A stretch of DNA of 52,392 nt, filler included, from Jimgerdemannia flammicorona (lineage: Eukaryota), in NCBI GenBank assembly GCA_003990765.1. It is 2 parts of 2 records of this genome, joined end to end, with 100 filler letters (N's around TTAATTAATTAA, not from the genome) between each part and the next. Parts side by side here need not be neighbours in the genome. Positions count along the whole stretch, not along the records: positions 1 to 26,150 come from RBNJ01000756.1; 1 more part is not named here. One strand, written 5' to 3'. Position numbers and translations under genes: made by a program. The notes under the pieces were generated by a model. It did no database searches. It was not told where the DNA came from and saw nothing but the letters and a program-made list of their open reading frames with translations. Below, one piece after another: positions 1,000 to 22,426 of this stretch (the first letter of the stretch is position 1; the number at the start of each line of letters is the position of its first letter).

Positions 1000-3639
1000 T
1001 CCTTCTTCTCTTAAAAATCAATATTCTCATTAATTTGCAAATTGAGAACCAGGGAAGAGAAAGGTGAAAAATCTTTCTTAGTGTGGTTGTCTTCTCCTCT
1101 AGCAGCTGAAGAGGTGGTTGCTAATAGTTTGATATCTAGGATGAAGAAGTCAATGAGGTCTGTAAATGGTTCTTGAACTGGTATAGACATTGGAATAGGA
1201 GTTCTCCATCTAATGTTATTGAGACCATCCAAGTAGAATTCTTGGTCCTTATATCTAGAGATATCCATTCAGATAGGTAGTTCTTCAAAGAGGTCAGAGA
1301 GACCTTAGAGCCATTGGTCTGGATTGTCATTCAGGAGGAGGCTCTAGTAGGATTCAATGTCAGTGGACTTGAGGGTAATTCAGAAGTTGACTTCTTAGAC
1401 TACCTTGATCTCTAGCTTATCAATTTTGAGGAAGAAGAGGTTCTGGAAGTTCTTCAGTTATATGTAGTTAAGGTTGGAGATTGCAAAAGATATATGATAT
1501 ATAATTTAGTAGACCTTCCTGACTAGTCTTTACTTGTACCTGTCTAGGTTGGTCTAGCCTAAGACCTGGTTAGTGGGTAGGCCATTTGTATATTAAAGAA
1601 GTTGATGACCAATTTCATATTTATACCAGATTTCTAAATAGCTGGTAGTAAGGTAGACCCTTTGATGAGTTTATAGCAATCAAGGACATACTGTCCTAGG
1701 TCCTGGCTGGAGAGGTTAAGGGCCTCAGAGCAGTGGTTTCTTCCTTAGATAGTAACCTGAATATGTCCAAAAAGGTAGTCAACCTAGCTTGAGAGAAGCT
1801 GGCTATGGCAAATAGTTTGGTAGTAAGTAGTAGATATTCTTGTCTTATCTTTTCTTTTAGAGAGAGGAGGGAGATGAGAGTTGTAATATATTCTTACTCT
1901 GGGTATTTATACTATTCATTTGTCTGGTATGACTTCAATTCAATCATGTTTTCTAGCAGAATATATAACCTATTGCTATAAGTAGAGCATGTGCTGATCA
2001 TATGAGGAAAATCCTAATTTCAAGCTATCACTACTTATGGTTGTAGTTATACAGAGTTTACAGATCTTAGTTTTTTTTTTTGTCTGGTTGGTATATTTGC
2101 AAGGACTGGCCATTCTTGTCTAGGATGAGGTCTCTCATTATTGTAGCTAGGGGTTTGAATTTCTTGGAAATAGTATTTCTTATATTCTGAGACAATTTAT
2201 AGTAAAAATATCTATCATATAGATGAACTTAGATTGGTTTCAATATTGTTAGCTTTCCTAAGTTCCATATGAAGTATCTGTCATCATCTAGTAGAGATGA
2301 CACAGATGGCATGAAATGGAATTGTTCAAATATATTTTGCTACACCTTGCTGGATTGTTCTTTGCCAGAGTATCTTCTTGTTGATTAATATAGTATTTCT
2401 ATTTCTATAATATTCAGTATTGCATATTCCAGATAAATTTATAGTATCTTCTTTCTTTGCTATGTGCTCTTGGTTTTAGAGCTGCAGTTTCTTCCTCTGC
2501 TAGAGAGTGAGTATTTCCATGTAGTTCTGGAGAGTATCATATGCATTCTCTAGAGCTTCTTCTTTTTTCCAGGTAGCATCATGGGTGGGGTAACTCTTCC
2601 ACTTGATGAGGAAAAACTGCTTGACTATTTTGATATATTTGTAGATCTTGTGGTTAAGTATTTCCTTAATTTCAAATTCCTTATGATTATTAATCCTAAT
2701 TGGAGATGGTGGTGGAATTATACACTCAGGAAATGGATTCTCATGGTAGTCCACCAGTTGGCTGATATGGAATACCAGGTGTACTTGAATATTGTAAGGA
2801 AGTTGTAACTTGTAGTTAACTTCACTGACTTTTTCCTTAATCTTGTATGGTCTAATTCTTCTAGTATAGAGTTTCTTGGCTGGTTGTTATGCTAGAGTGT
2901 CTGGATGGAGATAGTCTGTTCTAAACATGACTATGTTACTGATATTATAGGAGATCTCTCTTTGTTTCAAGTTCACATACTTGGTCTAGTAGTTCTGTGC
3001 TTTTATGAGAATATCTCTTATCATTTGTATAAGGTCAGAAATGGTCTCAGCCAGATCTTAGGCTGCTGGGACAGCTGATTTTGCAGTAGTACTCAGGGTC
3101 CTTGGGTGTTGGCCATAGTTTAGAAAGAATGGAGTCTTCTTCATAGAGGTTTACTGGCTATTATTGTAGAAAAACTCAGCATGGGTTAGGTACTTGTCCC
3201 AATTATTCTGCTTATAACAGCAGAAGATGCCATTGAGGGTCCTATTAGTTCACTCAGTCTGTCCATCAGTCTGAAGGTGATAGATAGTAGAGAACTTCAG
3301 CTTAGTTCTATAGAGAGAGAAGAATGCCTTCCAGAAGTTACTTATAAACTTTATATCTCAGTCAGATACAATAGTGCTAGATATGCTATATAGTTTGAAT
3401 ACTTAGTTGAGGAAGATCTCAGCAATCTCTGGTACTATGGCAGTGGTCTTGGTGGGTGCAAAATGAGCTTGTTTGCCTAGGTGGTCTACAAATACTATAA
3501 TGGCATCCCATTCTGCCTTGGTCTTGAAGAGCTAGACAATGAAGTCTATTGCAATCTGATCCTAGTTGTGACTTAGAATAGGTAGGGGTTGTAGAAGTCC
3601 TGTAGGTAGCTTGTTACCACTTTTAAACCTTTGGCATAT
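1000..3639 (-). mobile_element. Gypsy chromovirus A, 3' internal part (integrase core/C-terminus, GPY motif, chromodomain, extra ORF3), pseudogenised
   Basis: ORF 2500-2754 (EFEIKEILNHK...FLIKWKSYPTHDATW) is a chromodomain. The region is colinear with the reverse complement of 19040-21696. ORF 1011-1268 matches the ORF3 C-terminus of element B. Confidence 0.9.
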
Positions 3640-4084
3640 TGTAATAGAACGAGGCATGACAAGCGATCATGTGACCCAGCAGTGATGATGTCATCATACG
3701 ATTGAGCACAACATATGAATAACGAATGATGAATGAACAAACAATGTGGAAAATGATGCAAAAAACGATATTTAGCTTATCTCTGATAATCAGTACCACA
3801 GCAATAGTTGCCATAGCAGCTGATCATTGCCTAGTAATTGAGGTCCTGATTACAAAGTTGTTTTTGCCAAAAACCACCTAATAAAGGTCACAGTCACAAA
3901 CCTCACTATAGTTACCAAATTAGTCATTTATATTTAGTCAGAAATTGCAGACCAACTTGTATAAATACCCCCCAGTTTCCATCTGAAATAAAGCAGTTTT
4001 AGTTCAGTCCTTGATACAAGAAATCAAGTCCCCCCCACACACATACATTCCCCTGAGTCTTAGTAATGACACCTAAGTGACTCT
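3366..4084 (+). repeat. Left copy of a ~720-bp direct duplication (element A integrase piece + first 445 bp of element B 5' LTR)
   Basis: Matches 13103-13806 (offset 9737 up to the LTR start 3640/13377, then a ~15-bp indel). It ends ACCTAAGTGACTCT immediately before the poly-T. Confidence 0.92.
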
Positions 4085-4829
4085 TTTTTTTTTTTTTTTT
4101 ATAAAACGAGTAGAAAATAGAGAAATAGTTTAGAGCAAGATGAGATGCTGTTACAGTGGATATGAAGATCAGTGGTAAAAGGTCAAGCAGTAGGAAACGA
4201 TAAGCTTTTGTAAATTTTCACAACAGAACAAAGAAGTGGAATAAAGTGTTTTCTGAAGCAAGGTGCAATAGATCTGCAATCCGCTCATAGCACCACAGTT
4301 TGCAATGGTCTTTATTCAAAATTGAGAACAAAGTTCAGGTAAACAAAGACATGGATCTAACCCCAGAATTCCAGAATTGGACAAGTGCATAAGTACCCAG
4401 ACCTTGCCCCGATCCAAACAAAGGTCTGAATTGGGCTTCATCGATCTACATACATGACAGGCCATTAAAAACCCAATATAGAAACAATCAGGAAAAGGTA
4501 CCAGTCATGTGATCTAATGTTACACAAACAATAAACAATGCTAAAAATGGAACTAGACCAATGACATATCACGTTTGGTCATGTGATTATTACTTATAGG
4601 TTTAAAACTCTAAAAATTGTTGGCACCCGAAGGTGCAGGCATCAGGCCTAGAGCCTCGTGACCGGAGCAGAGTAGAGCCATGGTACTGGAGCAAGCGAAG
4701 CGAGCAGAGGTAGACAGGTGTCACAGAGTGTAAGTATGCAGGCATCAGGCCTAGAGCCTCATGCTGGAGGTTGTCCAGCAATTTTTCACATTTTTAAACA
4801 TCGCACGGCACATATGAGCAGTGCAGCCT

Positions 4830-6836
4830 TCAAGGAGGACTTACAGTGAAGCTGGTGTTTGAGACGGCGTTAAGAATGCTAAAACCATTCTTCTGGGTGA
4901 TGATTGGTCATCGGGCAGTCACAGGGAAACCAAAATGAAGCAAAGTGGTATGTAGGGTCTTATTGGGCTGTTGATGTAGCCATCGGGCCATGTCGTATTG
5001 GATGACAAGTAATGGGGGAGGAAAAGCGGAGTGGGGGATGGGGGGGTGGGAAATAAGGAGAGGGGTGAGAAGTGAAGTTCAGACCTCAAGCCAATCAATC
5101 AAACTCAATTGAGTGGTTACAACATCAACAGGGTATCCTTTCCTGTAAACCAGGAACTCAGCCAATAACTGACAGTCATTAAGCCAATCACAGCGAGATG
5201 AGCAGAGTAGTGAAAGGTGGCAGGCCTCATTCACAATGCATAGATGAAGTGTCTTCCTAGGATGATTGTCCAACCAGTTGACAAACTGAGTACTACATGG
5301 GAATTTAGCGAAGCGGCCTATGCAGAATGGTGTGACTTGGATTTCCAGGTCTAAGTAATAGCACGGTCTGGCGGACAAGACTTCCCATTCAATACGATGA
5401 TGCGGAGGGTACACAGCAGCAAAGATCAAGGCCAAGTCCATAATCGCGGGTATAAAGACAATAAGATCATCAATATACTGGCAGAACTTTAGCCCAGCAG
5501 CGATGGCTCAGCTGAGCAGATGATTGGGTGCTTGCAAGGTATGTAATTCATGAGCAAAACCAATAAGATTGACAAGATCCGGAGCACAATTGGTGCCCAT
5601 AGCAATACCAGTCACTGAGCAGAAGGAACTGATGGTAGATGTAAATGTTATATGAGTTATGACTATGCAGACAAGACCGAGAATGGCTTCAAGTGGCAAA
5701 GAGCCAAGGGGGAAGGCCACTATCGATAAAAAGGTAAGGCAGTCAATGCACTCATCTAGTATGATCCTGGTGTAGAAGGTGGTGAAATCTCCAGTAGCAA
5801 TGTAGTTGCAATCTGACACATCTAGGTAATCCAATCGAACCAGCTGTAGTAGTTCTAACATATCACGTAGAGATGAATAACATGAGTAACCCACATTATG
5901 GCACAAATGGGCCGACCACAGATGGAGAAAGCGAGATAGGAAATGTGAAATCTCAGTTGTGTGAGAGTTAAAAGCACCAACGATAGGGTGCCATGCCACA
6001 TGTGCCCCTTTGTGTACCTTGGACAAAGTGTGAAACATGGGTAACTTGCAATCGTTGGGTTCCATGAGGTGTTCCCAAATCAGCATACAACTCTTGTCAC
6101 TGATGCAGAACTCAAGTAGACCAAGAAGGTCTAACCTCACTGATTCCTTAACATTATCAATTGTAGAGGGATCATTCATGTATGTAGGATCATAAAGGAG
6201 AGACCGAAGACCATCGAGATACAAGGCACGTGGAATTACAGCGAACTCCAGATTTTTGTTGGTAAGATAGACAGTAAAGTCATCATGAGTATGGACCCCT
6301 TTAAGAAGGCATTGGAACTTCTTCAGTACAAGTGCACTGGACATATTCGTCATGGGTCAGACAGCTTGATTCAAAGCAGCACTCATATGAAGCATAATTT
6401 GCATATTTTCCATACAGTGCGGCAGTTGCCATTTAGATGGCACCCAGGCAGAGATCTCCAGGATGTTGTCAGGATTACCCATAGAGGTCCAGAAGGTGGC
6501 AAGGTCAAGATGCCATTAGAATGATGACAATGAAATCGGGTCAATGGTACTATTCATTGATGCTGACCCAGAGAGAACAAACTTAGGGCCAAAGTTCAGT
6601 ATATATGTGAGCTCAGGGGTAAGCCAAGACAGAGGTATATCAGTAACAAAGCCCTCCTCGGTAAACATCCGAAACTGAGGGACGAAAAACTGACTCAAGC
6701 GAGAACCAGGAAGAGAAGACACAAAGGCAAAATCCTCAATTAGTGTTGAGGCCGCTACCCCACATAGAATGGGGACATCGGGGCCAAACCATGCTGCTGG
6801 GAAGTTGTATAAGACTTCCGGGCTGGGGACCTCTAG
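4830..6836 (-). pseudogene. PLE reverse transcriptase ORF2, copy 1 (in-frame stops, no GIY-YIG domain)
   Basis: Motifs LNFGPKF, T(D/N)KNL, PMFHTLSKVHK, HPIV, GDFTTFYTRI, GIAMGTNCAPDLVNL, QYIDDL, YLDL, and thumb NHP...LCSS...KGYP. The reading continues past the TGA at 5079 for about 80 aa (LLVIQY...PIITQKNGFSILN) and then meets the H module. Confidence 0.9.
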
Positions 6837-7993
6837 TTTTTTGATGCTAGAGGACAGACATCACCAGCATTATACCAAACAACATGATGCTTGGCAGCAG
6901 TACACTTGTTGCACTGTGGCACAAATACCCTGGCAGCACTCTTAGATGAGCAGCTTGAAGTTGACGAGTGGCTGGTCACAGTAGAAGCAGAAGAAATGGA
7001 TGGGGAAGGCAAGACCTTATGCGCTCGCTTGACCCCTTTTACAGAACCCTCTGTCAAGGCAGGGGCTAGGGGGCAAGGACCCCAGTGCACCTTTGTAGGC
7101 ACACCGAGGCATCCAGAACAGCTGCAGCAGTTTAGCATGGCAGAGGCTGAAGTCACACTCACCACCTTGGCCTTTCCTACAGCCCCCACAGGCATAGCAG
7201 TAGAGGGTGGGGGGGTGGGGACACTCTTTTTCAGTCAGGTGGAACTGGTGGCAGTAGAAGCAAATATGCATTTTGTACCTGGAGTAATGATCTCGGGGTA
7301 CTTCTCAAGCTCCTCAACCATGGCTTTGTAGGTGGTGGCAGAAATCCCATCTTGTAGAGAGGAGGACGCAGGAACTGTTGGGTGGATGGTGGCAGCAGTG
7401 GCTTTAGCAGCGGTGGTGACGGCAAGATGGCGAGATTGACACATGATAACATCAAAACCACAGAGCAGAAACAAGTTTGTCTTGACTTGGTCAGTGGCAG
7501 CAAGGGTAGCAATATTCTTGCTAACCCCTTGAGTGATATCAATGGATAACTCAAAGAAATTGTGGGCATCGGAAGACCCACTCATGGCTTTGTCGATTTT
7601 AGCATACTGGTCCTTAGTATGCTGGGCGGTGGCATCTTGATCAGAGATGGCAGCCTCGATCATGGCAGTGGCACAGCACTTAGCTTCTGCCGAAGTAGTA
7701 GTAAGGGTGGTGGCATACTGTTCCTCTGGGAGGAGGGCAATCGCAGCAGAGACCTTCTTGGAAGGAGTAAACTTCCAATCAGCAACTTGGGCTCTCAAAA
7801 AGTCAGCACAGCGCTCATGTGCAGTGGTAACCTCGAGAGTACGGAGCACTCTAGTATAAGCAGCATGGAAGGCAGCAGGGACCTCGACAAGCGAAGCAGT
7901 CAAGAAGATGGCCAGATCGTCGAAGTTTGCCAAATCAGTGAAGGAAGCTTTGGGGATAGCAGCATCGCCATCTACATTCATATTGTCTGTCAT
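6833..7993 (-). pseudogene. PLE ORF1, copy 1 (~386 aa; Ala-rich, probably helical N-terminus, basic Ser/Pro-rich C-terminus)
   Basis: ORFs 7235-7993 and 6833-7195 share one frame separated by a TGA that is CGA in copy 2. Homologous to 9211-10371. Confidence 0.85.
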
Positions 7994-8502
7994 GTTGTGT
8001 ATTATAAAATGAGTAGAAAATAGAGGAATAGTTTAGAGTGAGATGAGATGCTGTTATGGTGGATATGAAGATTGGCAGTAAAAGGTCAAGCAGTAGGAAA
8101 TGATAAGCTTTTGTGAATTTTCATGATGGAACAAAGAAGCAGAATAAAGTGTTTTCCAAAGCAAGGTGCAATAGATCTGCAACCTGCTCATAGCACTGCA
8201 GTTTGTGATGGTCTTTATTCAAAATTGAGAACAAAGTTTGGGTAAACAAAGACACAGATCTAACCCTGGAATTCCAGAATCGGACAGGTGCATAAGTACT
8301 CAGACCTTGCCCCAATCCAAACAAAGGTCTGAATCGGGCTTTGTCGATCTATACATGTGACAGGCCATTAAAAACCTGATATAGAAACAATTGGGAAAAG
8401 GTACCGGTCACATGATCTAATGTTATACAAACAATAAACAATGCTAAAAATGGAACTAGATCAATGACATATCACATGTGGTCACATGATTGTCACTTAT
8501 AG

Positions 8503-8702
8503 GTTTAAAAACCTAAAAATTATTGGTACCCGAAGGCGCAGGCATCAGGCCTAGAGCCTCGTGACCAGAGCGGAGTAGAGCCTCGGCACCAGAGTAAGCA
8601 AAGCAAGCAGAGGTAGACAGGTGTCACAGAGCATAGGTATGCAGGCATCAGGCCTAGAGCCTCATGCTGGAGGTTGTCTGGTGATTTTTCATGTTTTTAA
8701 AC
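8503..8702. repeat. H module: loop of the giant palindrome, bounded by inverted repeats GTTTAAAAAC (8503-8512) and GTTTTTAAAC (8693-8702)
   Basis: Also present at 4600-4799 and, inverted, at 12403-12602. It contains the direct repeat GCAGGCATCAGGCCTAGAGCCTC twice and mini-hairpin motifs CCCGAAGG and GCGAAGC. Confidence 0.9.
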
Positions 8703-9210
8703 CTATAAGTGACAATCACGTGACCACACATGATATGTCATTGGTCTAGTTCCGTTTTTAGCATTGTTTATTGTTTGTGTAACATTAGATCACATGACTG
8801 GTACCTTTTCCCAATTGTTTCTATATTGGGTTTTTAATGGCCCATCACATGTATAGATCAACAGAGCCTGATTCAGACCTTTGTTTAGATTGGGGCAAGG
8901 TCCGGGTACTTATGCACCTGTCCGATTCTGGAATTCCGGAGTTAGATCTGTGTCTTTGTTTACCCAAAATTTGTTCTCAATTTTGAATAAAGACCATTAC
9001 AAACTGCAGTGCCATGAGCAGGTTGCAGATCTATTGCACCTTGCTTCAGAAAACACTTTATTCCGCTTCTTGTTCCATCGTGAAAATTCATAAAAGCTTA
9101 TCATTTCCTACTGCTTGACCTTTTACCGCTGATCTTCATATCCACCGTAACAGTATCTTATCTCACTCTAAACTATTCCTCTATTTTCTACTCATTTTAT
9201 AATACACAAT

Positions 9211-10371
9211 ATGACAGACAATATGAATATAGATGGCAATGCTGCTGTCCCCAAAGCTTCCTTCACTGATTTGGCGAACTTCGATGACCTGGCCATCTTC
9301 TTGACCACTTCACTTGTCGAGGTCCCTGCTGCCTTCTATGCTGCTTGCACCGGGGTGCTCCATACTCTCAAGGTTGCCGCTGTGCATGAGTGCCGTGCTG
9401 ACTTTTTGAGAGCCCAAGTTGCTGATTGGAAGTTTACTCCTTCCAAGAAGGTCTCTGCTGTGATCGCCCTCCTCTCAGAGGAACAGCGTGCTGCCACCCT
9501 TACTACTGCTTCTGCAGAAGCTAAGTACCGTACCACTGCCACAATTGAGGCTGCTGTCTCCGATCAAGATGCTGCCACCTAACATGCTAAGGACCAGCAT
9601 GCTAAAATTGATAAAGCCATGGGTGGGTCTTCTGATGTCTACAATTTCTTTGGGTTATCCATTGATATCACTCAAGGGGTTAGCAAGAATATTGCTACCC
9701 TCACTGCCACTGACCGAGCCAAGACAAACTTATTTCTGCTCTGTGGTTTTGACATTGTCGTACATCAATCTTGCTATCTTGCCACTGCCACTGCTGCTAA
9801 AGCCGCTGCCACCACTGTCCACCCGACAGTCCCTGCATCCTCCTCCTTGCAAGATGGGATTTCCGCCGCCACCCACAAAGCCATGGTTGAGGAGCTTAAG
9901 AAGCACCCCAAGATTGTTACTCTGGATGCAAAATGCATGTTTGCTTCTGCTGCCGCCAGTTCTGCCCGACCAAAAAAGAGTGTCTCCACCCCCCCACCCT
10001 CTACCACCGTGCTTGTGGGGGCTGCGGGAAAGGCCAAGGTGGTGAGTGTGACTTTGGCCTCTGCTGCACCAAACTGCTACAGCTGTTCTGAACATCTCGG
10101 TGTGCCTATGAAGGCACACCAGGGTCCTTGTCCCCTAGCCCCTGCCTCAACAGAGGGTTCTGTAAAAGGGGTCAAGTGAGTGCATAAGGCCTCACCTTCC
10201 CCATCCATTTCTTCCACTTCTATCATGACCAGCTGCTTGTCGACTTCCAGCTGCTCATCTAAGAGCGCTGCCAGGGCATTTGTGCTGCAGTGCAACAAGT
10301 GTACTGCCACCAAGCATCATGTTGTTTGGCATAATGCTGGTGATGTCTGTTCTCTAGCATCAAAAAACTAG
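9211..10371 (+). pseudogene. PLE ORF1, copy 2
   Basis: ORFs 9211-9582, 9619-10179 and 10180-10371 lie in one frame, split by TAA/TGA codons explicable as C-to-T changes. It begins MTDNMNIDGNAAVPKASFTDL and ends ASKN*. Confidence 0.85.
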
Positions 10372-12372
10372 AGATCCCCAGCCTGGAAGTCTTATATGAC
10401 TTCCCAGCAGCATGGTTTGGCCCCAATGTCCCCATTCCACATAGAGTAGTGGCCTCAACACCAATTGAGGATTTTGCCTTCGTGTCTTCTCTTCCTGGTT
10501 CTCACTTAAGTCAGTTTTTCATCCCTCGGTTTCAGATGTTTACTAAGGAGGGCTTTGTTACTGATATACCTCTACCTTGGCTTACCCCCAAGCTCACGTA
10601 TATGCTGAACTTTGGCCCTAAGTTTGTTCTCTCCAGGTCGGCATCAATGAACAGTACCATTGATCCAATTTCATTATCGTCGTTCCAATGGCGTCTCAAC
10701 CTTGCCACCTTCTGGACCTCTATGGGTAATCCCGACAACATCCCAGAGATCTCTGCCTGGGTGCCATCTAAATGGCGACCACTGCACTATATGGAAAATA
10801 TGCAAATTATACTCCATATGAGTACCACTTTGAATCAAGCTGTCTGACCCATGACAAATGTGTCCGGCATGCTTGTACCGAAGAAGTTCTGATGCCTTCT
10901 TAAAGGGGTCCATACTCATGATGACTTTACTGTCTGTCTTACTGACAAAAATCTGAGGTTCGCCATAATTCTGCATACCTTGTATCTTGACAGTCTTCAG
11001 TTCCTCCTTCATGATCCTGCATATGTGAATAATCTCTCTATGATTGATAACGTTAAGGAATCAGTGAGGTTAGACCTTCTTGGTCTACTTGAGTTCTGCA
11101 TCGGCGACAAGAGTTATATACTGATTTGGGAACACCTCATAGAATCCAATGATTATAAGTTACCTGTATTTCACACTTTGCCCAAGGTATACAAAGGGGT
11201 ACATATGGCATAGCGCCCTATCGTTTGTGCTTTTAACTCTCCCATGACCAAGATTTCACATTTCCTATCTCACTTTCTCCACCTGTGGTCAGCCTATTTG
11301 CACCATAATGTGGGTTACTTGTATTATTCACCTCTACGTGATACATTAGAACTGCTATAGCTAGTTTGATTGGATCACCTAGACATGTCAGATTGCAACT
11401 ACGTCACTACTGGAGATTTTGCCATCTTCTACACCAGAATCACACTAGATGAGTGCATCAACTGCCTTACCTTTTTATCAATAGTGGCCTTTCCCCTTGG
11501 CTCTTTGCCACTAGAAGCTGTTCTCGGCCTTGTCTGCATAGTCATGACACATATGACATTTATATCTGCCATCAGTTCCTTCCGCTCAGTGACTGGTATT
11601 GCTATGGGCACCAATTGTGCTCTGGATCTTGCCAATCTTGTTGGTTTTGCTCATAAATTGCATGCCTTGCAAGCACCCAATCATCTGCTCAGCCGAGCCA
11701 TTGCTGCCAGGCTAAAGTTCTACCAGTATATTGATGATCTTATTGTCTTTACACCCATGATTATGGACTTGACCTCAATCTTTGCTGCTGTATACCCTCC
11801 GCATCATCATATCAAATGGGAAGTCTTGTCTGCCAGACCATGCCATTACTTAGACCTGGAAATCCGAGTTGCACTGTTCCACACAGACCGCTTTGCCAAA
11901 TTCCCACAAAGTACTCAGTTTGTCGACTGGTTGAGCAATCATCCTAGGAAGATGCTTCATCTATGTATTGTAAATGAGGCCCACTGCCTTTCACTACTCT
12001 GCTCATCTTGCCGTGATTGGCTTAATGAGTGTTGGTCATTGGCCAAGTTCCTGGTTCACAGGAAAGGATACCCTATTGATGTTGTAACTACTCAATTGAG
12101 TTTGGTTGATTGGCTTGAGGTCTGAACTTTACTTCTCACCTCCCCTTATTTCCCACCCCCCCATCCTCCACTCCACTTTTCCTCCCCCATTACTTGTTGT
12201 CTAATACAACATGGCCCAATGGCTACATCAATAGCCCGACAAGACCCTACATACTGCTTTGCTTCGTTTTGGTTTCCCTGCAACTGCCCAATGACCAATC
12301 ATCACCTGGAAGAATGGTTTTACCATTCTTAATACCATCTCAAACACCAGCTTCACTCTAAGTCCTCCTTGA
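10368..12372 (+). pseudogene. PLE reverse transcriptase ORF2, copy 2
   Basis: LNFGPKF, TDKNL, LPKVYK, GDFAIFYTRI, GIAMGTNCALDLANL, FYQYIDDL, YLDL, SNHP, KGYP. It lies in the -1 frame relative to ORF1. Confidence 0.9.
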
Positions 12373-13102
12373 AGACCACACTGCTCATACGTGCCGTGCA
12401 ATGTTTAAAAATGTGAAAAATCGCTGGACAACCTCTGGCATGAGACTCTAGGCCTGACGCCTGTGTATCTATGCTCCATGATGTCTGTCTATCTCCACTC
12501 GCTTCGCTCGCTCCAGTGCCAAGGCTCTACTCTGCTCTGGTCACAAGGCTCTAGACCTGATACCTGCACCTTTGGGTGCTGACAATTTTTAGGGTTTTAA
12601 ACCTAAAAGTGACAATCACGTGACCACACATGATATGTCATTGGTCTAGTTCCATTTTTAGCATTGTTTATTGTTTGTATAATATTAGATCACGTGACTG
12701 GTATCTTTTCCCAATTGTTTCTATATTGGATTTTTAATGGCCCATCATGTATGTAGATCGATGAAGCCTAATTCAGACCTTTGTTTGGATCGGGGCAAGG
12801 TCCAGGTACTTATGCACCTGTCCGATTCTGGAATTCTGGGGTTAGATCCATGTCTTTGTTTACTCAAACTTTGTTCTCAATTTTGAATAAAGACCATCAC
12901 AAACTGCAGTGCCATGAGCAGGTTGCAGATCTATTGCACCTTGCTTTGGAAAACACTTTATTCCACTTCTTTGTTCCATCGTGAAAATTTACAAAAGCTT
13001 ATCATTTCCTACTGCTTGACCTTTTACTGCCAATCTTCATATCTGCCATAACAGCATCTCATCTTGCTCTAAACTATTCCTCTATTTTCTACTTGTTTTA
13101 TA

Positions 13103-13806
13103 ATATAATAGTGCTAGACATGCTATATAGTTTGAATACTTAGTTGAGGAAGATCTCAGCAATCTCTGGTGCTGTGGCAGTGGTCTTGATGGGTGCAAAA
13201 TGAGCTTGTTTGCCTAGGTGGTCTACAAATACTACAATGGCATTCCATTCTGCCTTGGTCTTGAAGAGCTAGACAATGAAGTCTATTGCAATCTGATCCT
13301 AGTTGTGACTTAGAATAGGTAGGGGTTGCAGAAGTCCTGTAGGTAGCTTGTTACTACTTTTAAACCTTTGGTATATTGTAATAGAACAAGGCGCAACAAG
13401 CGATCACATGACCCAGCAGTGATGACATCATCATATGATCAAGCATGACATATGAATAATGAATGATGTGGAAAATGACACGAAAAATGATATTTAGCTT
13501 ATCCCTAACAATCAGCACCACAGCAACAGTTGCCATAGCAGCTGATCATTGCCTAGTAATTGAGGTCCTGATCACAAAGTTGTTTTTGCCAAAAACCACC
13601 TGACAAAGGTCATGGTCACAAACCTCACTATAGTTACCAAATTAGTCACTCATATTTAGTCAGAAATTGCAGACCAACTTGTATAAATACCCCCCAGTTT
13701 TCATCCAAAATAAAGCAGTTTTAGTTCAGTCCTTGATATAAGAAATCAAGTCCCCCCCACACACATACATTCCCCTGAGTCTTAGTAATGACACCTAAGT
13801 GACTCT
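13103..13806 (+). repeat. Right copy of the ~720-bp direct duplication
   Basis: Matches 3366-4084 and continues seamlessly into the rest of the element B LTR. Confidence 0.92.
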
Positions 13807-14135
13807 AGTGTTTCTGACTAAACTCCAGAAGCCTAGCTAACTTCTGCCAGAACTGAGACCAGTATATAAATCCTGAAAGACTTAAGTAAACCCATTGAAC
13901 CTGAATTCTAAGGCAAATTCAGTCTGTGCACAGCAAAGAACAAGACCCTTGAAAGATAGGGCACACAAGAGAAAGATCTTTGAAACAGAAGGCACTACCA
14001 CTATAACTACTTATAAGCGAGCGCTTCCTTAACTGAAGGCTTCTTGGTATACATCATGTACTAAGTCTCTAAGTAATAGTCTACTTCCCTAATTATCCAA
14101 TGGATAAGAGAGGGGTAGAAGTGAGAGTTATTACA
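13377..14135 (+). repeat. 5' LTR of element B
   Basis: Runs TGTAATAG...GTTATTACA with terminal inverted repeat TGTAATA/TATTACA. TATA-like TATATAAA near 13863. Confidence 0.93.
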
Positions 14136-14138
14136 ACT

Positions 14139-14150
14139 TGGTAGCAGCAG
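14139..14150 (+). promoter_or_regulatory. Primer-binding site, probably for initiator tRNA-Met
   Basis: TGGTAGCAGCAG lies 3 nt (ACT) after the LTR end. TGGTAGC is complementary to the 3' end of tRNA-iMet, as in Ty1/Ty3. Confidence 0.7.
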
Positions 14151-14221
14151 ATTACCAGCCAAGAAGATACTAAAGAACACACTCCTGAAGTTGGAACAAT
14201 ACCAACCTTGGACAGGAGTAA

Positions 14222-16665
14222 ACCCCAGAACCAACTGTGGATCCTCAAACCAGAGCCAGAGAAGCCCTTGCCATTAGGACCAGGTGATACCAGGAAACAA
14301 CAGACCCAAGGACCCACCAGCTTGTAATTGACCAGGCTTATAAGGATCTATACCAGGCCTTTAGGACTTACCACCCAGGACTTAGGAATATTGTCAGCCA
14401 CCATAGGTTCTATGAACTCCTCCGAGGACACATTGGAACCACTAGGACCCCAGAATCCACTGCTGCAGCCACCCAGGATTTTTTAGATTATATCTCACCC
14501 CCTGCTGCAAGAGAAGCAGCTGCTGAGTGGATTACCTCTGACAGATATCACTATACCCCTACCAAGACCTCCCTCTACTATAGGCTAGTTGTATACTATG
14601 CCTCTGCCATAACCAGGTACGAGAATGAGCAAGCAGGCCAACTATCCCCTACTGCTGAACAAGAAGCAGGCCCATCTACTTAGCCAGAAACTGATATCCT
14701 CTTTGAAGGACCTAGTCAGTATGAGGACACACTATCTCATCAGAGAAGGGAGTCAGATGAAGACTCTATAGGATACCAGTCTGATGATAGTCAACAAAGA
14801 ACAGCAGGTCTAAGAATTTACCAAAGAACTACAGGTTAAGAAGATCAGACCCCAGAACTAACCCAGCCACCAATACAGAGGTTTGGTTTACCCTCCCTCA
14901 TAGGACTCTTTGATCTGATATCTGAGAATCAAGTAACCTCAAGTCATACAGCACTATAACCCCATCAAGCAGAACAATCTTCAGGAGAATCTACCCCAAC
15001 AGGCCCACCACCAAAAGTCAACACAATGGTAGATGTCAACATTGCAGCACTGACTACCCAGCTAGCAGCACTAGCAGAGATAGTAGGACAGATTGCTGAA
15101 CAGAACAAACCAACCAAGACCTTATGAATTCCAACATTCAGTGGAAAGAACAGTGACATTGAAAACCTCATCAATGTAGTTGATACAGGCTACTGAGCAA
15201 ACCAATGGAATGACAACTAAGTGTCTATAGGAATGCTCACCAACAACCAGAATAGCACCCTTCAACAGCTGTTTGCCATATCAGCAGCACAAGTGGAAAC
15301 AGTAGCCACATTCTTCACTGGAACAGCAGCCAAATTTTGGCAAACCTTGGAACAACACCCAGTAACCTGGGAAGACCACCCTCAAGTCAATGGACAAGTA
15401 TCTGCCAACAATAGACTAGGTTGGGATGACTATGAAGCAGGCCCAGGACTCAAGACCTTGCTACTGACTAAATTCCAAAATGCAGCCTATATACAAGAAA
15501 CTTGGAACAAACTGTCTCAGATGAAGTTCTACAAGAGCAGTGAGGAGGATCTAGAGACCTTTGCCACCAGAATAGATGCCTATCTCAAAACCATTGGACT
15601 TACCTATCAGGAGAACAACTTGGCCATCAATGATACTAGAGCCAACCATCTTTTTGCAGCCCTACAAGACTGGCTCACCCAGAAGATCAAGGAACAAGGT
15701 CTTCCCCAAGGATGTCCCCACTACTCATGGTACTTTGCCCAAGTACAAAGAAGAGCTGGTGAAATCCTTGCTGTACAGGCCCCACGAAATCAAGAATACA
15801 AAAAGGATAACCAAGATAGAAGGAATCCTACCAGGAGAAATGACCAAAGGAAGGACCAAAGATATGATCAAAGGAATGATCAAAGGAACCAGTGAAACCC
15901 CAGAGGACCCAGAGCTCTCACCAAGGATGAAAAGAAGCAGCTCTGCAAAAAGGGATTGTGCTTCATCTGCAAGAAGACAGGACACATCTCAGTCAAATGC
16001 CCTGAGAAGAGAAACAGATCAGGCAAACCCAGTAACCAGAACATTACTGTTATTGGAGAAGGCACAGAGAAGAAGAACTCTGAGAATATCATCAAAGTAT
16101 AGAAGATATAGTACAAGGCTACCATCCCCACTAAGGCCCACTCAACTGATGCTGGATATGACCTCTACAGCAGTCAAGATCTCACCATTCCACCAAGTAC
16201 CAATGCTACAGTGTGAACAGGAATTGCAATGCAAGCTCCCAAAGAAACATACATCTGCCTTGCTGAGTAAAGCAGCCTAGCCAAAGAATTCAACATTGGG
16301 CTAGGAGGAGGAGTAGTTGACCAAGGATTTACTGGTGAAATCCATGTCATCTTGCGAAATTTTGGAGATACATTATTTGAAGTCAAAGTAGGCCAAAGAA
16401 TTGCCCAGACAATTATTGAAGAAATCTGTCAAGATCTCACCATTGAAGAAGTCCCTGAACTCTCCCAGATAGATCATGGCAAGAAAGGGTTTGGATCTAC
16501 CAACAAACCTCCTAGTCAAAAGGTCACTACTATGAAGGAAGATGATGAAAACTGGTATAAGAGAATTGCAGATGGTTATGTACTATGTGGACAATGCCCT
16601 CATTCTATCTGAATGTACTACATGGAATATATTGGTAAATGCCATACATGCCTCTCCAAAGTTTT
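14222..16665 (+). pseudogene. gag: Element B ORF1: long N-terminal extension, Gag (IPTFSG, CCHC knuckle), dUTPase, CPH mini-domain
   Basis: One frame throughout, with scattered C-to-T type stops. Knuckle LCFICKKTGHISVKC at about 15956-16000. dUTPase motifs DAGYDL, SSLA, GVVDQGFTGEI, RIAQ, GKKGFGST at about 16090-16502. Confidence 0.85.
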
Positions 16666-16669
16666 CTGA

Positions 16670-19600
16670 GAAATGCCAAGTCCAACAGACTGAGGAACCC
16701 AAACAAGACAACCCTCCTTGTGAAGGATGGAGAGAAACTGACTTTGAGGAGACTGATAGCAATTGGGACAATAATGAGAATGAAGAGCTCAACACCATCA
16801 AGAAGGAGGACAGTTGCATTAAGTTTACAGGTCAAGTCCACAGACAGAATATCAATGTCTTGCTTGATAGTGATACTACTGAAAACTATATCAGCACCAA
16901 GACTGCCAAGAGGATTGGAGCCCAAAGCAGACCAGCCACCAAGAAAAGAAGTGTTATCTTTAGTGATGGAAAAACTGCACCATTGAACAAGATCTGCAAG
17001 GATCTCTTGCTCAAGATTGGCAAATATCAAGAGAAGTTGGACCTCAGCATTGTAGACCTCCCAGGACAAGATATTATTCTAGGAAAAGCCTGGTTGACCC
17101 AGTATAACCCAGACATCAACTGGAGAACCAACGAGATTAACCTGACCCATGAAGGCAGAAAGATCACCCTGATACCCCAGAAAGGTACCAATTACCAAGG
17201 AATTGAAATCATCTCCACCATTCAAATGAAGAGACTCTCTCGAAAAAAGAGAAACACCTATTTCATCTGTACAGTACAAGAAGTCACTGAAGCTACAAGT
17301 AGCCCAATTCCAACAGAAGCTCAAGAACTGTTTAAAGAATTCCAAGATGTATTCCAAGACCCCTAAGGACTTCCACTCAAGTATCAAATCCAATATGGGA
17401 TTGATCTTATTCCAGGATCTGAACCCCCATATAAGAGTATCTATCAACTGGCCCAACCTGAGCTCAAGACCCTCAAGGATGAGTTGACCAAACTACTGGC
17501 CCAAGGATATATTGAACCCAGCTGCTCTCCATTTGGAGCCCCTATTCTATTTGTCAAGAAGAAGGATGGTTCTCTGCAAATGTGTATTGACTACAGAGCC
17601 CTCAACAAGATCATCATCAAGAACCGATATGTCTTGCCCAGGATTGATGAGTTACTACACCAAATCTTCAAGGCCAAGACCTTTTCTCTACTGGACTTGC
17701 AAAATGGCTACCACCAGATTCTCATTGATGAGAAGAACATTGAGAAGACAGCTTTCCAAATACAGTTTGGACACTACCAGTTCCAGGTCATGCCTTTTGG
17801 ATTGACCAATGCACCAGCAACATTCCAGTACCTGATGAACGACATCTTTAGACCACTTCTCAATATCTGTGTCCTTGTATATATTGATGATATACTAATC
17901 TACAGCAAAACAGTAGAGCTACACTACTACACCCATCTCAGACAAGTACTGACCCTCCTGTGAGAACACCAGCTCTATGCCAAGATGAGCAAATGCAAGT
18001 TCTATCAAGACCAGATTGAGTATCTAGGACACATTATCTCTGCTGAAGGTATCAATGTAGACCCCCGAAAGGTATCAGCCCTTAAGGATATTCCTATTCC
18101 CACTACCCTCAAGCTACTCCAGCACTTTCTGGGTATTGCCAGTTACTACTGAAGGTTTATCCAAGAATACTCTGCTATTGCAGCTCTATTGACCAGCCTG
18201 GCCCGCAAAGAAGTGAACATCAAAACTGAATGGACCCCTGAATACACCCTAGCTATAGACTATCTCAAGAGACTCCTTACTGAGGCCCCAGTGCTAATTG
18301 CACCTGACCCCACCAGGCTATTCATGCTGACCACAGATGCCTCTGACATTGCTATTGGAGCAGTGCTCAGCCAAGAAGACCACCTAGTGGCCTACCTTTC
18401 CCAAAAGCTCAAGCCAGCTGAGACCTGGTACACTACCCATGAGAAGAAACTCCTGGCCATTGTTATTGCATTTCAAGAATAGCACCACTTCCTCCTAGGA
18501 CAACCATTTGTAGCCTACACTGATCACTATGCCCTGCAGTATATTCATACATAGCCCATGCTAACCCACAGACAAGCCCGCTGGATGGAAATCATTGCCA
18601 ACTTTGATATGGAAATCAAGTATATCTCAGGCAAAACCAACTGTGTGGCTGATGGTTTCTCCAGATACATAGAAGATGAACTTGTCTTCATGGTCAAAAT
18701 AATTGGAGATCTGACCGAGATGATCAAGGATGGCTACAGCAGGACAGCCCCCTGACGAAATTTCTCCAATTCTGCCAAGACCCAGAAGCCGAGATCCCAG
18801 AACTCATGAGTCAAATGTCCAAGAGATTCACTTACCGTGATGGACTTATCTACAGAGACTATGATAGAGTAGTTGTACCCAACAATGATACTCTGTGACT
18901 CAAGATCATGCAGGAACTCCATGATACCCCTACAGCAGGACACTTTGGTTTCAAAAAGATCTATAACCTCCTCTCAAGAGAGTTCTACTGGCCAAAGATG
19001 ACTAAGGACATCAAAGACTTTGTGGCTTCTTGTGAGATATGTCAAAGGTTCAAAAGTGGTAATAAGCTACCAGCAGGACTCTTACAACCCTTGCCTATCC
19101 TAAGTCACAACTGGGATCAGATTGCAATGGACTTTATTGTCCAACTCCCCAAGACCAAGGCAGGATGGGATGCTATTGTAGTATTCATGGACTGCCTAAG
19201 CAAACAAGCCCACTTTGCACCCACCAAGACCACCACTACAGTACCAGAGATTGCTGAGATTTTTCTCAATCAAGTATTCAGGCTACATGGCATGCTTAGT
19301 ACTATTATATCTGACTGAGATACCAAGTTTACAAGTAACTTCTGGAAGGCATTCTTCTCTCTCCATGGAACTAAGCTGAAGTTCTCTACTGCCTACCACC
19401 CTCAGACTGATGGCCAAACCAAGCAAACCAATAGGACTCTCAAACAGATGCTTAGCATCTTCTGCTGTTACAAGCAAAATGATTGAGACAAGTATCTAGC
19501 CTATGCCGAGTTTGCCTACAACAACAGTCAGCAAACCTCTACAAAGAAGACTCCATTCTTCCTGAACCATGGTCAACACCCAAGGACCCTGAGTACTACT

Positions 19601-21696: not shown

Positions 21697-22426
21697 TGTA
21701 ATAGAATGAGGCATGATAAGTGATCATATGACCCAGCAGTGATGATGTCATTATATGATCAAGCATGACATATGAATAACGAATGATGAATGAATGAATG
21801 ATGCAGAAATCGACATAAAAAATGATATTTAGCTTATCTCTGACAATCGGCGCCACAGCAACAGTTGCCACAGCAGCTGATCATTGCTTAGTAATTGAGG
21901 TTGTGATCACAAACCTCACTATAGTTACCAAATTAGTCACTCATACTTAGTCAGAAATCACAGACCAACTTGTATAAATATCCCCCAGTTTCCATCTGAA
22001 ATAAAGCAGTTTTAGTTCAGTCCTTGATATAAGAAATCAAGTCCCCCCCACATACACACATTCCCCTGAGTCTTAGTAATGACACCTAAGTAACTCTAGT
22101 GTTTCTGACTAAACTCCAGAAGTCTAGCTAACTTCTGCTAGAACTGAGACCGGTATATAAATCCCCAAAGACTTAAGTAAACCCATTGAACCTGAATTCT
22201 AAGGTGAATTCAGTCTGTATACAGCAAAGAACAAGACCCTTAAAAGATAGAGCATACAAGAGAAAGACCTTTGAAACAGAAGGCACTGCTGCTACAACTA
22301 CTTATAAGTGAGCACTTCCTCAACTGAAGGCTTCTTGGTACACATCATATACTAAGTCCCTAAGTAATAGTCCACTTCCCTAATTATCCAAAGGATAAGA
22401 GAGAGATATAAGTGAGAGTTATTACA
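21697..22426 (+). repeat. 3' LTR of element B
   Basis: Preceded by the PPT AAGGAGAGAAGGA (21684-21696). Direct repeat of 13377-14135 with an internal deletion between TCACAAA repeats. Confidence 0.93.

Follow-up and report, generated by a model that had tools for sequence, protein, structure and literature searches.

Penelope-like elements (PLEs) that lack an endonuclease, such as those of the Coprina/Athena type, reportedly carry a module that combines a hammerhead ribozyme with telomere repeats, as is said to have been described by Gladyshev and Arkhipova in 2007 and by Cervera and de la Pena in 2014. Passages of two papers describe a module of this kind for endonuclease-less PLEs, with the telomere repeats in reverse-complement orientation (PMC8557442; PMC13159263), and Naiad and most Chlamys PLEs are reported, in the relevant part of the first of these sources, to be without canonical hammerheads (Craig et al., 2021, PMC8557442). 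A different feature is recounted in sections of a study of Adineta vaga Penelope elements, whose pseudo-long terminal repeats (pseudo-LTRs) begin at the 5′ end with palindromes of 18 bp (Pen2) or 38 bp (Pen3a) that are found at inverted junctions and are interpreted as evidence of self-priming (Arkhipova et al., 2013, PMC3846280). The same sections state that fungal endonuclease-less PLEs do not share the A. vaga organisation (PMC3846280). The origin of the direct and inverted terminal repeats of PLEs is still unsolved, and a head-to-head layout has so far been tied to the presence of a GIY-YIG endonuclease. Here we describe a 52,392-nucleotide (nt) stretch of DNA from the fungus Jimgerdemannia flammicorona, called the window throughout, in which this same layout occurs in a PLE that has no endonuclease, no hammerhead and no telomere repeats, and in which the junction falls exactly on an inverted repeat of the element's own pseudo-LTR.

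At the centre of this analysis is a segment of 200 nt, which we call H. A first-pass annotation had described H as a cassette of mini-hairpins bounded by inverted repeats and standing where a hammerhead would be expected, and had proposed that it is either a structured origin, priming or turnaround signal or a new ribozyme-like motif. We conclude that H is the outermost 200 nt of a PLE pseudo-LTR, and that it is neither a free-standing cassette nor a ribozyme. The three copies that had been annotated are real and lie at 4600-4799, 8503-8702 and 12403-12602, the last inverted. When 8503-8702 is used as the blastn query against the window, 4600-4799 is recovered at 88% identity on the plus strand and 12602-12403 at 81% on the reverse strand, copies 1 and 3 are 85% identical to each other, and no further full-length match was found by blastn in all 52,392 bases. 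Within the window, H is present only between two other element segments, X and R, or at the junction of a dimer, and never alone.

In sense order, the unit of the host element consists of an ATG, an open reading frame (ORF) of ~972 codons, X (277 nt), H (200 nt) and R (~520 nt), and units are spaced 3,900-3,903 nt apart. H and R together make up the pseudo-LTR of ~720 nt. Element copy A, on the minus strand, extends from 8702 to ~4101 and reads H-R-ORF-X-H-R; it is followed at its 3′ end by a run of 17 A residues (4084..4100, minus strand, appearing as a T run on the plus strand). Element copy B, on the plus strand, extends from 8686/8703 to 13108 and reads R-ORF-X-H-R. Its ORF (9211..12125, plus strand, with the ATG at 9211 and the stop codon at 12125) encodes a decayed Penelope-type reverse transcriptase (RT) of ~972 codons, and the counterpart in copy A spans 7993 to 5079 on the minus strand. 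X is the 3′ untranslated region (UTR) between the stop codon and H, and is located at 12126..12402 (plus strand) and at 4800-5078 (minus strand). R, the inner part of the pseudo-LTR, is located at 12603..13108 and 8703-9209 (plus strand) and at 7995-8502 and 4101-4599 (minus strand), with 89-93% identity among the copies, and it terminates with ...TTTTATAA, which in the internal copies is positioned 12 nt ahead of the ATG. Thus placed, H copy 1 (sense strand minus) resides inside the 3′ pseudo-LTR of element copy A, H copy 3 (sense strand plus) resides inside the 3′ pseudo-LTR of element copy B, and H copy 2 (minus strand) is both the outer end of the upstream pseudo-LTR of copy A and the loop of a central palindrome.

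This palindrome, of ~9 kb, is formed by copies A and B lying head to head with their 3′ ends outward, and the middle H is its loop. Its arms, 4094-8519 and 8686-13108, are 4,426 and 4,423 nt long and 88.3% identical, with 3 gap columns. An inverted-repeat search returns the inner segment 8134-8519 / 8686-9071, and the arm tips (8493-8519 and 8686-8712) are 93% complementary. The arms end at 8519 and 8686, within the two ends of H, and they reach 17 nt into H on both sides because the ends of H are themselves inverted repeats. H copy 2 tracks copy 1 as far as ...TTTTTAAAC and then continues with R in place of X; therefore, the 5′ end of copy A is at the X|H border and the 5′ end of copy B is at the H|R border. 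Furthermore, on its right-hand side the middle H carries an end of the X-side type, with TTTTTCATG in place of TTTTTAGRG. Both H copies away from the junction have the inverted ends too, and so these must be older than the junction.

The dimer is flanked by a long direct duplication of the target. The left copy (3366..4084, plus strand) and the right copy (13103-13806) are in direct orientation and are 91.8% identical over 719 columns. The duplicated target is the interior part of an older repeat that is uninterrupted in its other copies in the window; the older repeat at the duplication also gives rise to the matching pairs 2002-3639 / 20692-19037, 3640-4084 / 21697-22097 and 13396-14135 / 932-224. 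The divergence of the palindrome arms (88.3% identity), the H copies (81-88%), the R copies (89-93%) and the target duplication (91.8%) is similar, which fits one insertion event, and the 12% divergence of the arms rules out a fold-back artefact of assembly. The differences between the arms amount to 500 transitions, only 17 transversions and 3 gap columns, and 330 of the transitions are at CpG sites. Arm decay is almost purely C-to-T deamination, and the insertion may therefore be much younger than a divergence of 12% suggests. The element as a whole is depleted in CpG, with an observed/expected ratio of 0.35.

The reading that we favour, and for which we judge the arguments on either side to be evenly balanced, is that the inverted ends of H supplied the complementarity that joined two converging first-strand complementary DNAs (cDNAs). 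In a first step, two DNA 3′ ends located ~0.72 kb apart would each prime reverse transcription from the 3′ terminus of an element RNA; the features behind this step, namely 3′ ends that face outward and a target duplication in direct orientation, are seen in the sequence. Both cDNAs would then be extended towards the 5′ region of the RNA and, being of like polarity, would need an inverted repeat in order to anneal. The 3′ end of the first cDNA, on which all of H would have been copied (...TTTTAAAC-3′), would pair with the R-side end of H in the second cDNA by way of 8 perfectly matched terminal nt and a further block of 8 nt, and would then be extended along the second cDNA. The functional pair of H ends in this proposal would be GTTTAAAA...AAAAATTG and its complement. 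Such a process would leave one H as a loop with R facing outward on both sides, and this layout is the one observed.

Two details of the junction bear on this scheme. The X-side type of the right-hand end of the middle H is the expected product of extension from the 3′ end of the first cDNA. In addition, this cDNA stops exactly at the X|H border, and therefore the template RNA may have its 5′ end there. A single cDNA snapping back on itself was rejected as the whole story, since the flank would then be expected in inverted orientation after copy B, where a direct copy is seen. The turnaround or priming signal of the first-pass annotation is in keeping with this anatomy, to the extent that the middle H is the palindrome loop and the arms start at its inverted ends. 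Selection may have shaped the inverted repeat as a joining signal, or the repeat may be just the best complementarity available, or a chance repeat that was used once.

What recommends the inverted ends of H is their position more than their quality. In H copy 1 the R-side end is at 4600..4623 and its partner at 4775-4799, and the corresponding pairs are 8503-8526 / 8678-8702 in copy 2 and 12403-12426 / 12579-12602 in copy 3. The imperfect terminal repeats of ~25 bp that had been annotated do exist, in that the ends match at 21 of 25 positions when aligned by hand with one gap, but they are weak, and in ungapped form they comprise only 17-23 nt that are 74-82% complementary and 150-166 nt apart. 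For the gapped, two-block match, a rough analytic estimate that was not computed by a tool gives a chance of ~1-3% per UTR. The signature GTTTAAAA-N3-7-AAAAATYR is present at all six H ends and absent from the rest of the window. The status of H as a discrete ‘cassette’ therefore derives mainly from the junction, and not from inverted-repeat statistics.

The terminal 8-bp stem of H is present in every fold, whether computed for single-stranded DNA (ssDNA) or for RNA. As RNA, H copy 1 folds with z = -3.4 in the sense orientation and z = -2.1 in the antisense orientation, and as ssDNA the z-scores are -2.2 for copy 1, -3.5 for copy 2 and -0.5 for copy 3. A consensus fold of the three copies retains the terminal stem and a 5-bp hairpin, with double changes at 3 pairs. 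We also restored CpG sites in an H consensus and folded it, as had been suggested in the first-pass annotation: 44 of 46 variable columns are pure transitions, the CpG count rises from 5 to 21, and the z-scores against mononucleotide shuffles are -2.1 to -3.2, with no hammerhead core on either strand. In the covariation analysis suggested at the same time, three decaying copies provide no usable covariation by which to judge whether the structure of H is conserved.

Several observations weigh against the joining of two cDNAs at the ends of H. Only one junction is available to examine, and the 3′ end of copy B is without an A run. In shuffles of the whole 3′ UTR of ~1 kb, an ungapped inverted repeat as good as that of H arises in 6 of 30 and 8 of 30 cases, and therefore the inverted repeat alone is not above chance. 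The stability of the H fold is modest and uneven across copies, and the covariation term of the three-copy consensus fold is +1.22, where positive values are unfavourable, with many broken pairs. Finally, the mechanism leaves the internal 27-nt direct repeats and two small hairpins of H unexplained.

The 23-mer GCAGGCATCAGGCCTAGAGCCTC occurs six times, twice in every H as the first-pass annotation reported, together with a partial TAGAGCC... element that forms a second short repeat 24 nt downstream. It is exact in copies 1 and 2, carries 3 mismatches at each occurrence in copy 3, and is found in 0 of 100 shuffled sequences. The 23-mer is contained in a pair of direct repeats in each H, 26-27 nt each, with 96% identity and a spacing of 103 nt (4634..4660 and 4737-4763 in copy 1, where the repeat is 27 nt; 8538-8563 / 8641-8666 in copy 2; 12443-12463 / 12546-12566 in copy 3). 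Of the mini-hairpins, the 5-bp stem GCACC-CGAA-GGTGC (4623..4636, minus strand), which presents a cUUCGg loop on the element sense strand, had been attributed to every H and is intact in copy 1 only, since two of its pairs are non-Watson-Crick in copy 2 and the loop is UUUG in copy 3. A 6-bp hairpin, GCTGGA-GGTTG-TCCAGC (4763..4779, minus strand), adjoins the X-side inverted end and is broken in copy 2. The heptamer GCGAAGC, singled out earlier as an exceptionally stable mini-hairpin, is retained by copies 1 and 3 and has been lost from copy 2. Its exact sequence occurs three times on the plus strand of 3301-13300, once in H and twice elsewhere in the element, and therefore it is not distinctive. 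The mini-hairpins of H are thus ordinary in both size and frequency. No tandem array was detected in the interior of H by TRF.

Internal duplication between inverted ends also invites the interpretation that H is a small fold-back DNA transposon, or a miniature inverted-repeat transposable element (MITE), which entered the 3′ UTR of an ancestral element and is now a passenger whose ends were used at the junction merely because they were available. H resembles MITEs and fold-back elements in being short and non-coding, with inverted ends and internal repeats, and its interior is 52-56% G+C between flanks of 30-46%. Its lack of a homologue in the UTRs of 77 related loci would also fit such an origin. 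The sequence TTTAAA at both ends of H could be a 6-bp target duplication, but it is palindromic and part of the inverted ends, and so no clear target duplication can be claimed. Unlike MITEs, H has no independent copies or unambiguous target duplication in the window. The absence of H outside the PLE in 52 kb speaks weakly against this reading, and the H motif likewise gave 0 matches in metagenome contigs. Given also that the ungapped test puts the inverted repeat at chance level, we consider a transposon origin of H unlikely.

The 77 related loci were obtained from metagenome contigs by a protein-guided scan, and they show what relatives of the element carry. Rfam at gathering thresholds reported 0 hammerheads in 20 of these loci, yet at least 11 of the 20 carry canonical ones according to a covariance model of our own, R1 (loci L002, L003, L006, L009, L010, L013-L016, L019 and L023, with cores of the form CUGAUGAG...CGAAAC). 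It was because Rfam missed true hammerheads in these relatives that R1 was built, and for the same reason Rfam negatives are weak evidence here. R1 derives from 12 relatives in an alignment of 84 columns, and its consensus folds as a type I hammerhead in which 7 of 17 pairs show compensatory changes. With this model, canonical type I hammerheads were found in 32 of the 77 loci, all on the RT sense strand, and canonical CUGAUGAGCC...GGCGAAAC cores are present in loci without an Rfam match. The order of features in the relatives is an ORF of 956-1,077 amino acids, a 3′ UTR of ~0.4-0.8 kb, a hairpin, the hammerhead, TAACCCTAA some 125 nt further on and an ATG ~25 nt beyond it, and L019 displays this layout in full. 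TAACCCTAA follows within 200 nt of the hammerhead in 26 of the 34 copies that have enough downstream sequence, and the complete ORFs contain RVT_1 only (12 of 12 tested).

The hammerhead of the relatives lies ~150 nt upstream of the ATG, versus 520-720 nt for H. Therefore, H is no strict positional replacement for the ribozyme, and its description as standing where a hammerhead would be expected is correct only in a rough sense. Sequence comparison likewise fails to connect the two groups. H, X and R gave nothing below an expect value (E) of 0.7 in blastn-short searches against the UTRs of the 77 loci, and an nhmmer profile of the relatives' hammerhead region, which matches 6 of 8 held-out loci, has a best E of 37 against the unit. 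A stretch bounded by inverted repeats that no shuffle could match is present in 4 of 14 of the relatives' 3′ UTRs (L050, L025, L015 and L014), and these stretches differ in sequence and position. Among seven longer related loci we found no head-to-head PLE dimers, only direct tandems or nothing. Direct tandems are present in L037 and L038, which share one contig of 11.8 kb, and in L034; they take the form of three units at 100% identity with a period of 3,196 nt, or of a 3,316-nt spacing beside a 73-nt satellite.

Some features of the relatives concern transcription. In 14 of 31 loci, the sequence TATA[AT]A is positioned 21-28 nt from the start of the CUGAUGA core. Stems of 6-15 bp, often rich in G+C, lie 20-110 nt upstream of the hammerheads, an observation made without a shuffle control. 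The placement of the TATA box and stem points to a transcription start at the ribozyme or shortly ahead of it. Separately, YTCATCA, the complement of the core sequence UGAUGAR, lies 10-20 nt past the ribozyme in 23 of 32 loci, compared with 106 of 4,615 background windows of 65 nt (for example, L049:3091-3115 and L019:1748-1775 among loci L001-L077). Judging by its complementarity, this sequence could pair with the hammerhead core as an off-switch.

Such arrangements raise the question of whether H might be a promoter or regulatory part of the pseudo-LTR, wherein the 27-nt repeats would serve as factor sites and the TTTAAAA and TATAAG boxes at the borders would drive the downstream unit, perhaps bidirectionally. 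Passages of published accounts place the promoter and start site of Penelope and Chlamys elements in the pseudo-LTR (PMC8557442) and describe A. vaga pseudo-LTRs with a TATA box that can be read both ways (PMC3846280). In the window, TATAAG is present at the H|R border in 3 of 4 copies of R, X carries a double CCAAT (CCAATGACCAAT) at 12288-12299, ~105-115 nt upstream of H, and the relatives add their TATA box and their hairpin ahead of the hammerhead. However, all of this is pure motif spotting in A+T-rich DNA, and it leaves unexplained why the junction coincides with the ends of H. A regulatory function of H, which we also consider unlikely, would in any case be compatible with the joining of cDNAs at H rather than exclusive of it. 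X also contains a palindrome, GAAGAATGG...CCATTCTT, within 12310-12335, and together with the double CCAAT it occupies the region ~70-115 nt upstream of H.

The absence of a hammerhead from H and R, already noted in the first-pass annotation, has held up against Rfam, a core-motif scan and R1, and it extends to X. Rfam at gathering thresholds finds 0 ribozymes in the whole window. When thresholds were relaxed to E up to 10 with 4,227 families on the intervals 3300-14200, 12100-13110 and 7990-9215 (search spaces of 10.9 kb, 1.0 kb and 1.2 kb), no ribozyme was returned, and the only rows were microRNA, small nucleolar RNA and long non-coding RNA families at chance level. The core scan finds no CTGANGA in H, X or R. 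This motif occurs twice in 3300-14200, at 6326 and 11000 on the minus strand, and neither occurrence is accompanied by helix II plus GAAA. The CUGAUG within the 23-mer of H is partly a product of CpG decay, as copy 3 keeps CUGACG in its first repeat. R1 run over the window with filters off gives no match in H, X or R.

A number of candidates were considered and set aside. The R1 matches at 17820-17884 (the best, at 14.2 bits, inside a Gypsy RT gene), 4020-4093 and 6088-6156 score 9-14 bits and count as noise; the best of these is enclosed by a Gypsy-type polyprotein remnant at 15221-17963 (plus strand; MPFGLTNAP...YIDDILIY). A decayed hammerhead suspected by eye in the four-copy alignment of R, at ~12905-12960 (...CCATGAG-long stem-...GGAAAAC), lacks two core bases, has four extra bases before GAAA, offers no helix III or cleavage site and receives no model score. 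In H, AUGAGGCUCUAGGC had been likened to the helix II region of one relative's hammerhead, and its CpG-restored form is CACGAG, not GAUGAG. A fold like that of the hepatitis delta virus ribozyme, starting at the first base of H and examined by eye only, with no descriptor search made, would have as its P1 an A/U run that pairs only with the far end of H.

That H is a new self-cleaving or otherwise catalytic RNA that took the place of the hammerhead and generates an RNA 5′ terminus at the X|H border is highly improbable: the hammerhead of the relatives does occupy the same general region between stop codon and next ATG and is missing from this lineage, the junction hints at an RNA 5′ end on the first base of H and the sense fold has z = -3.4, but 0 of the 4,227 Rfam families match at E up to 10 even on ~1 kb, no core emerges after CpG restoration, the first bases of H are the A/U run just mentioned, only the terminal stem and one 5-bp hairpin are conserved across the three copies, R1 is blank in H, X and R, and none of the 77 loci has a homologue.

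The host element, then, is one without the module of hammerhead and telomere repeats found in its relatives, and an array of CCCTAA was not found at the R terminus. An endonuclease is likewise missing: no GIY-YIG domain was detected at E up to 0.1 in seven pieces that cover most of the ORF, with short ORFs in X, H and R outside the scan, and the ORF terminates directly after the thumb region. In an alignment with 11 database relatives, the RT displays the motifs DKN/TDKNLG upstream of the RT domain, LPKVHK, RPIV, GIAMGTNCAP (G-AMGT--AP) and YIDD, which are named here after usage in portions of PMC13159263. Protein searches with the ORF return 276 matches at E up to 0.001, the best of which is only 44% identical, and the matches include one partial protein from Racocetra fulgida, an arbuscular mycorrhizal fungus. 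A domain scan of 31 of the matches found RVT_1 in 18, and RVT_1 plus GIY-YIG in one. The two 3′ ends of the dimer are also worth recording: copy B ends (13100-13110) in ...TTTTATAATATAAT with no A run, copy A ends in the 17-nt A run, and an A tail is unusual in a PLE.

What is more unusual than H is thus the element as a whole, with its lack of endonuclease, hammerhead and telomere repeats, its internal chromosomal site and its long target duplication. Our preferred reading, that cDNAs were joined at the ends of H, could be extended to the entire family. In this distinctly unlikely but more far-reaching form, H and R would have replaced the hammerhead and telomere-repeat module in this fungal lineage, and H would act as a dedicated cis-signal: through its inverted ends, two cDNAs that had been primed on either side of a chromosome break or gap would meet and close the insertion. 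Head-to-head dimers with long target duplications would then be the normal product of nuclease-free, non-telomeric integration, and the template RNA would have a defined 5′ end at the X|H border. If the junction recurs across the family, a concrete and testable step of integration would be at hand, namely cDNA annealing or snap-back at an inverted repeat of the pseudo-LTR. If it does not recur, H is ordinary UTR sequence. The negative result for ribozymes is useful in either case, as it adds this lineage to the PLEs that do without a hammerhead.

The element shares with relatives of the Coprina/Athena type the size and layout of its ORF and a 3′ terminus located ~12-25 nt before the next ATG, and it departs from them in having H and R, in the A run at one of its 3′ ends and in being located internally on a chromosome. 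A further parallel is LINE-1 twin priming, in which, as Ostertag and Kazazian are said to have proposed in 2001, reverse transcription of the element RNA starts from two DNA 3′ ends and the cDNAs become joined in inverted orientation between target duplications. Two primings, inverted joining and target duplications are features that our locus has in common with that process. In contrast to twin priming, both cDNAs here would be primed from the RNA 3′ end, the two copies are full-length and the duplication extends over hundreds of bases. As for Naiad and most Chlamys elements, the available descriptions indicate that these also have no canonical hammerhead and still make partial tandems with an adjoining inverted 5′ copy, and that they carry an N-terminal GIY-YIG endonuclease, unlike the element in the window.

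Penelope of A. vaga offers the closest precedent. As in the portions of that work noted at the outset, an inverted repeat is located at the outer (5′) end of the pseudo-LTR, is also present in direct copies, and is found at the head-to-head junction. The A. vaga repeats as described there are compact and near-perfect, at 18-38 bp, whereas the arms of H are 17-25 nt long and imperfect and enclose an interior of 150-166 nt with direct repeats. Moreover, the host element here is endonuclease-less and fungal, and its flanking duplication is ~0.72 kb rather than the 8-10 bp given for A. vaga. By analogy with that system, it is plausible that H acts as a turnaround, which would make it a variant of a feature already described for endonuclease-bearing Penelope elements.

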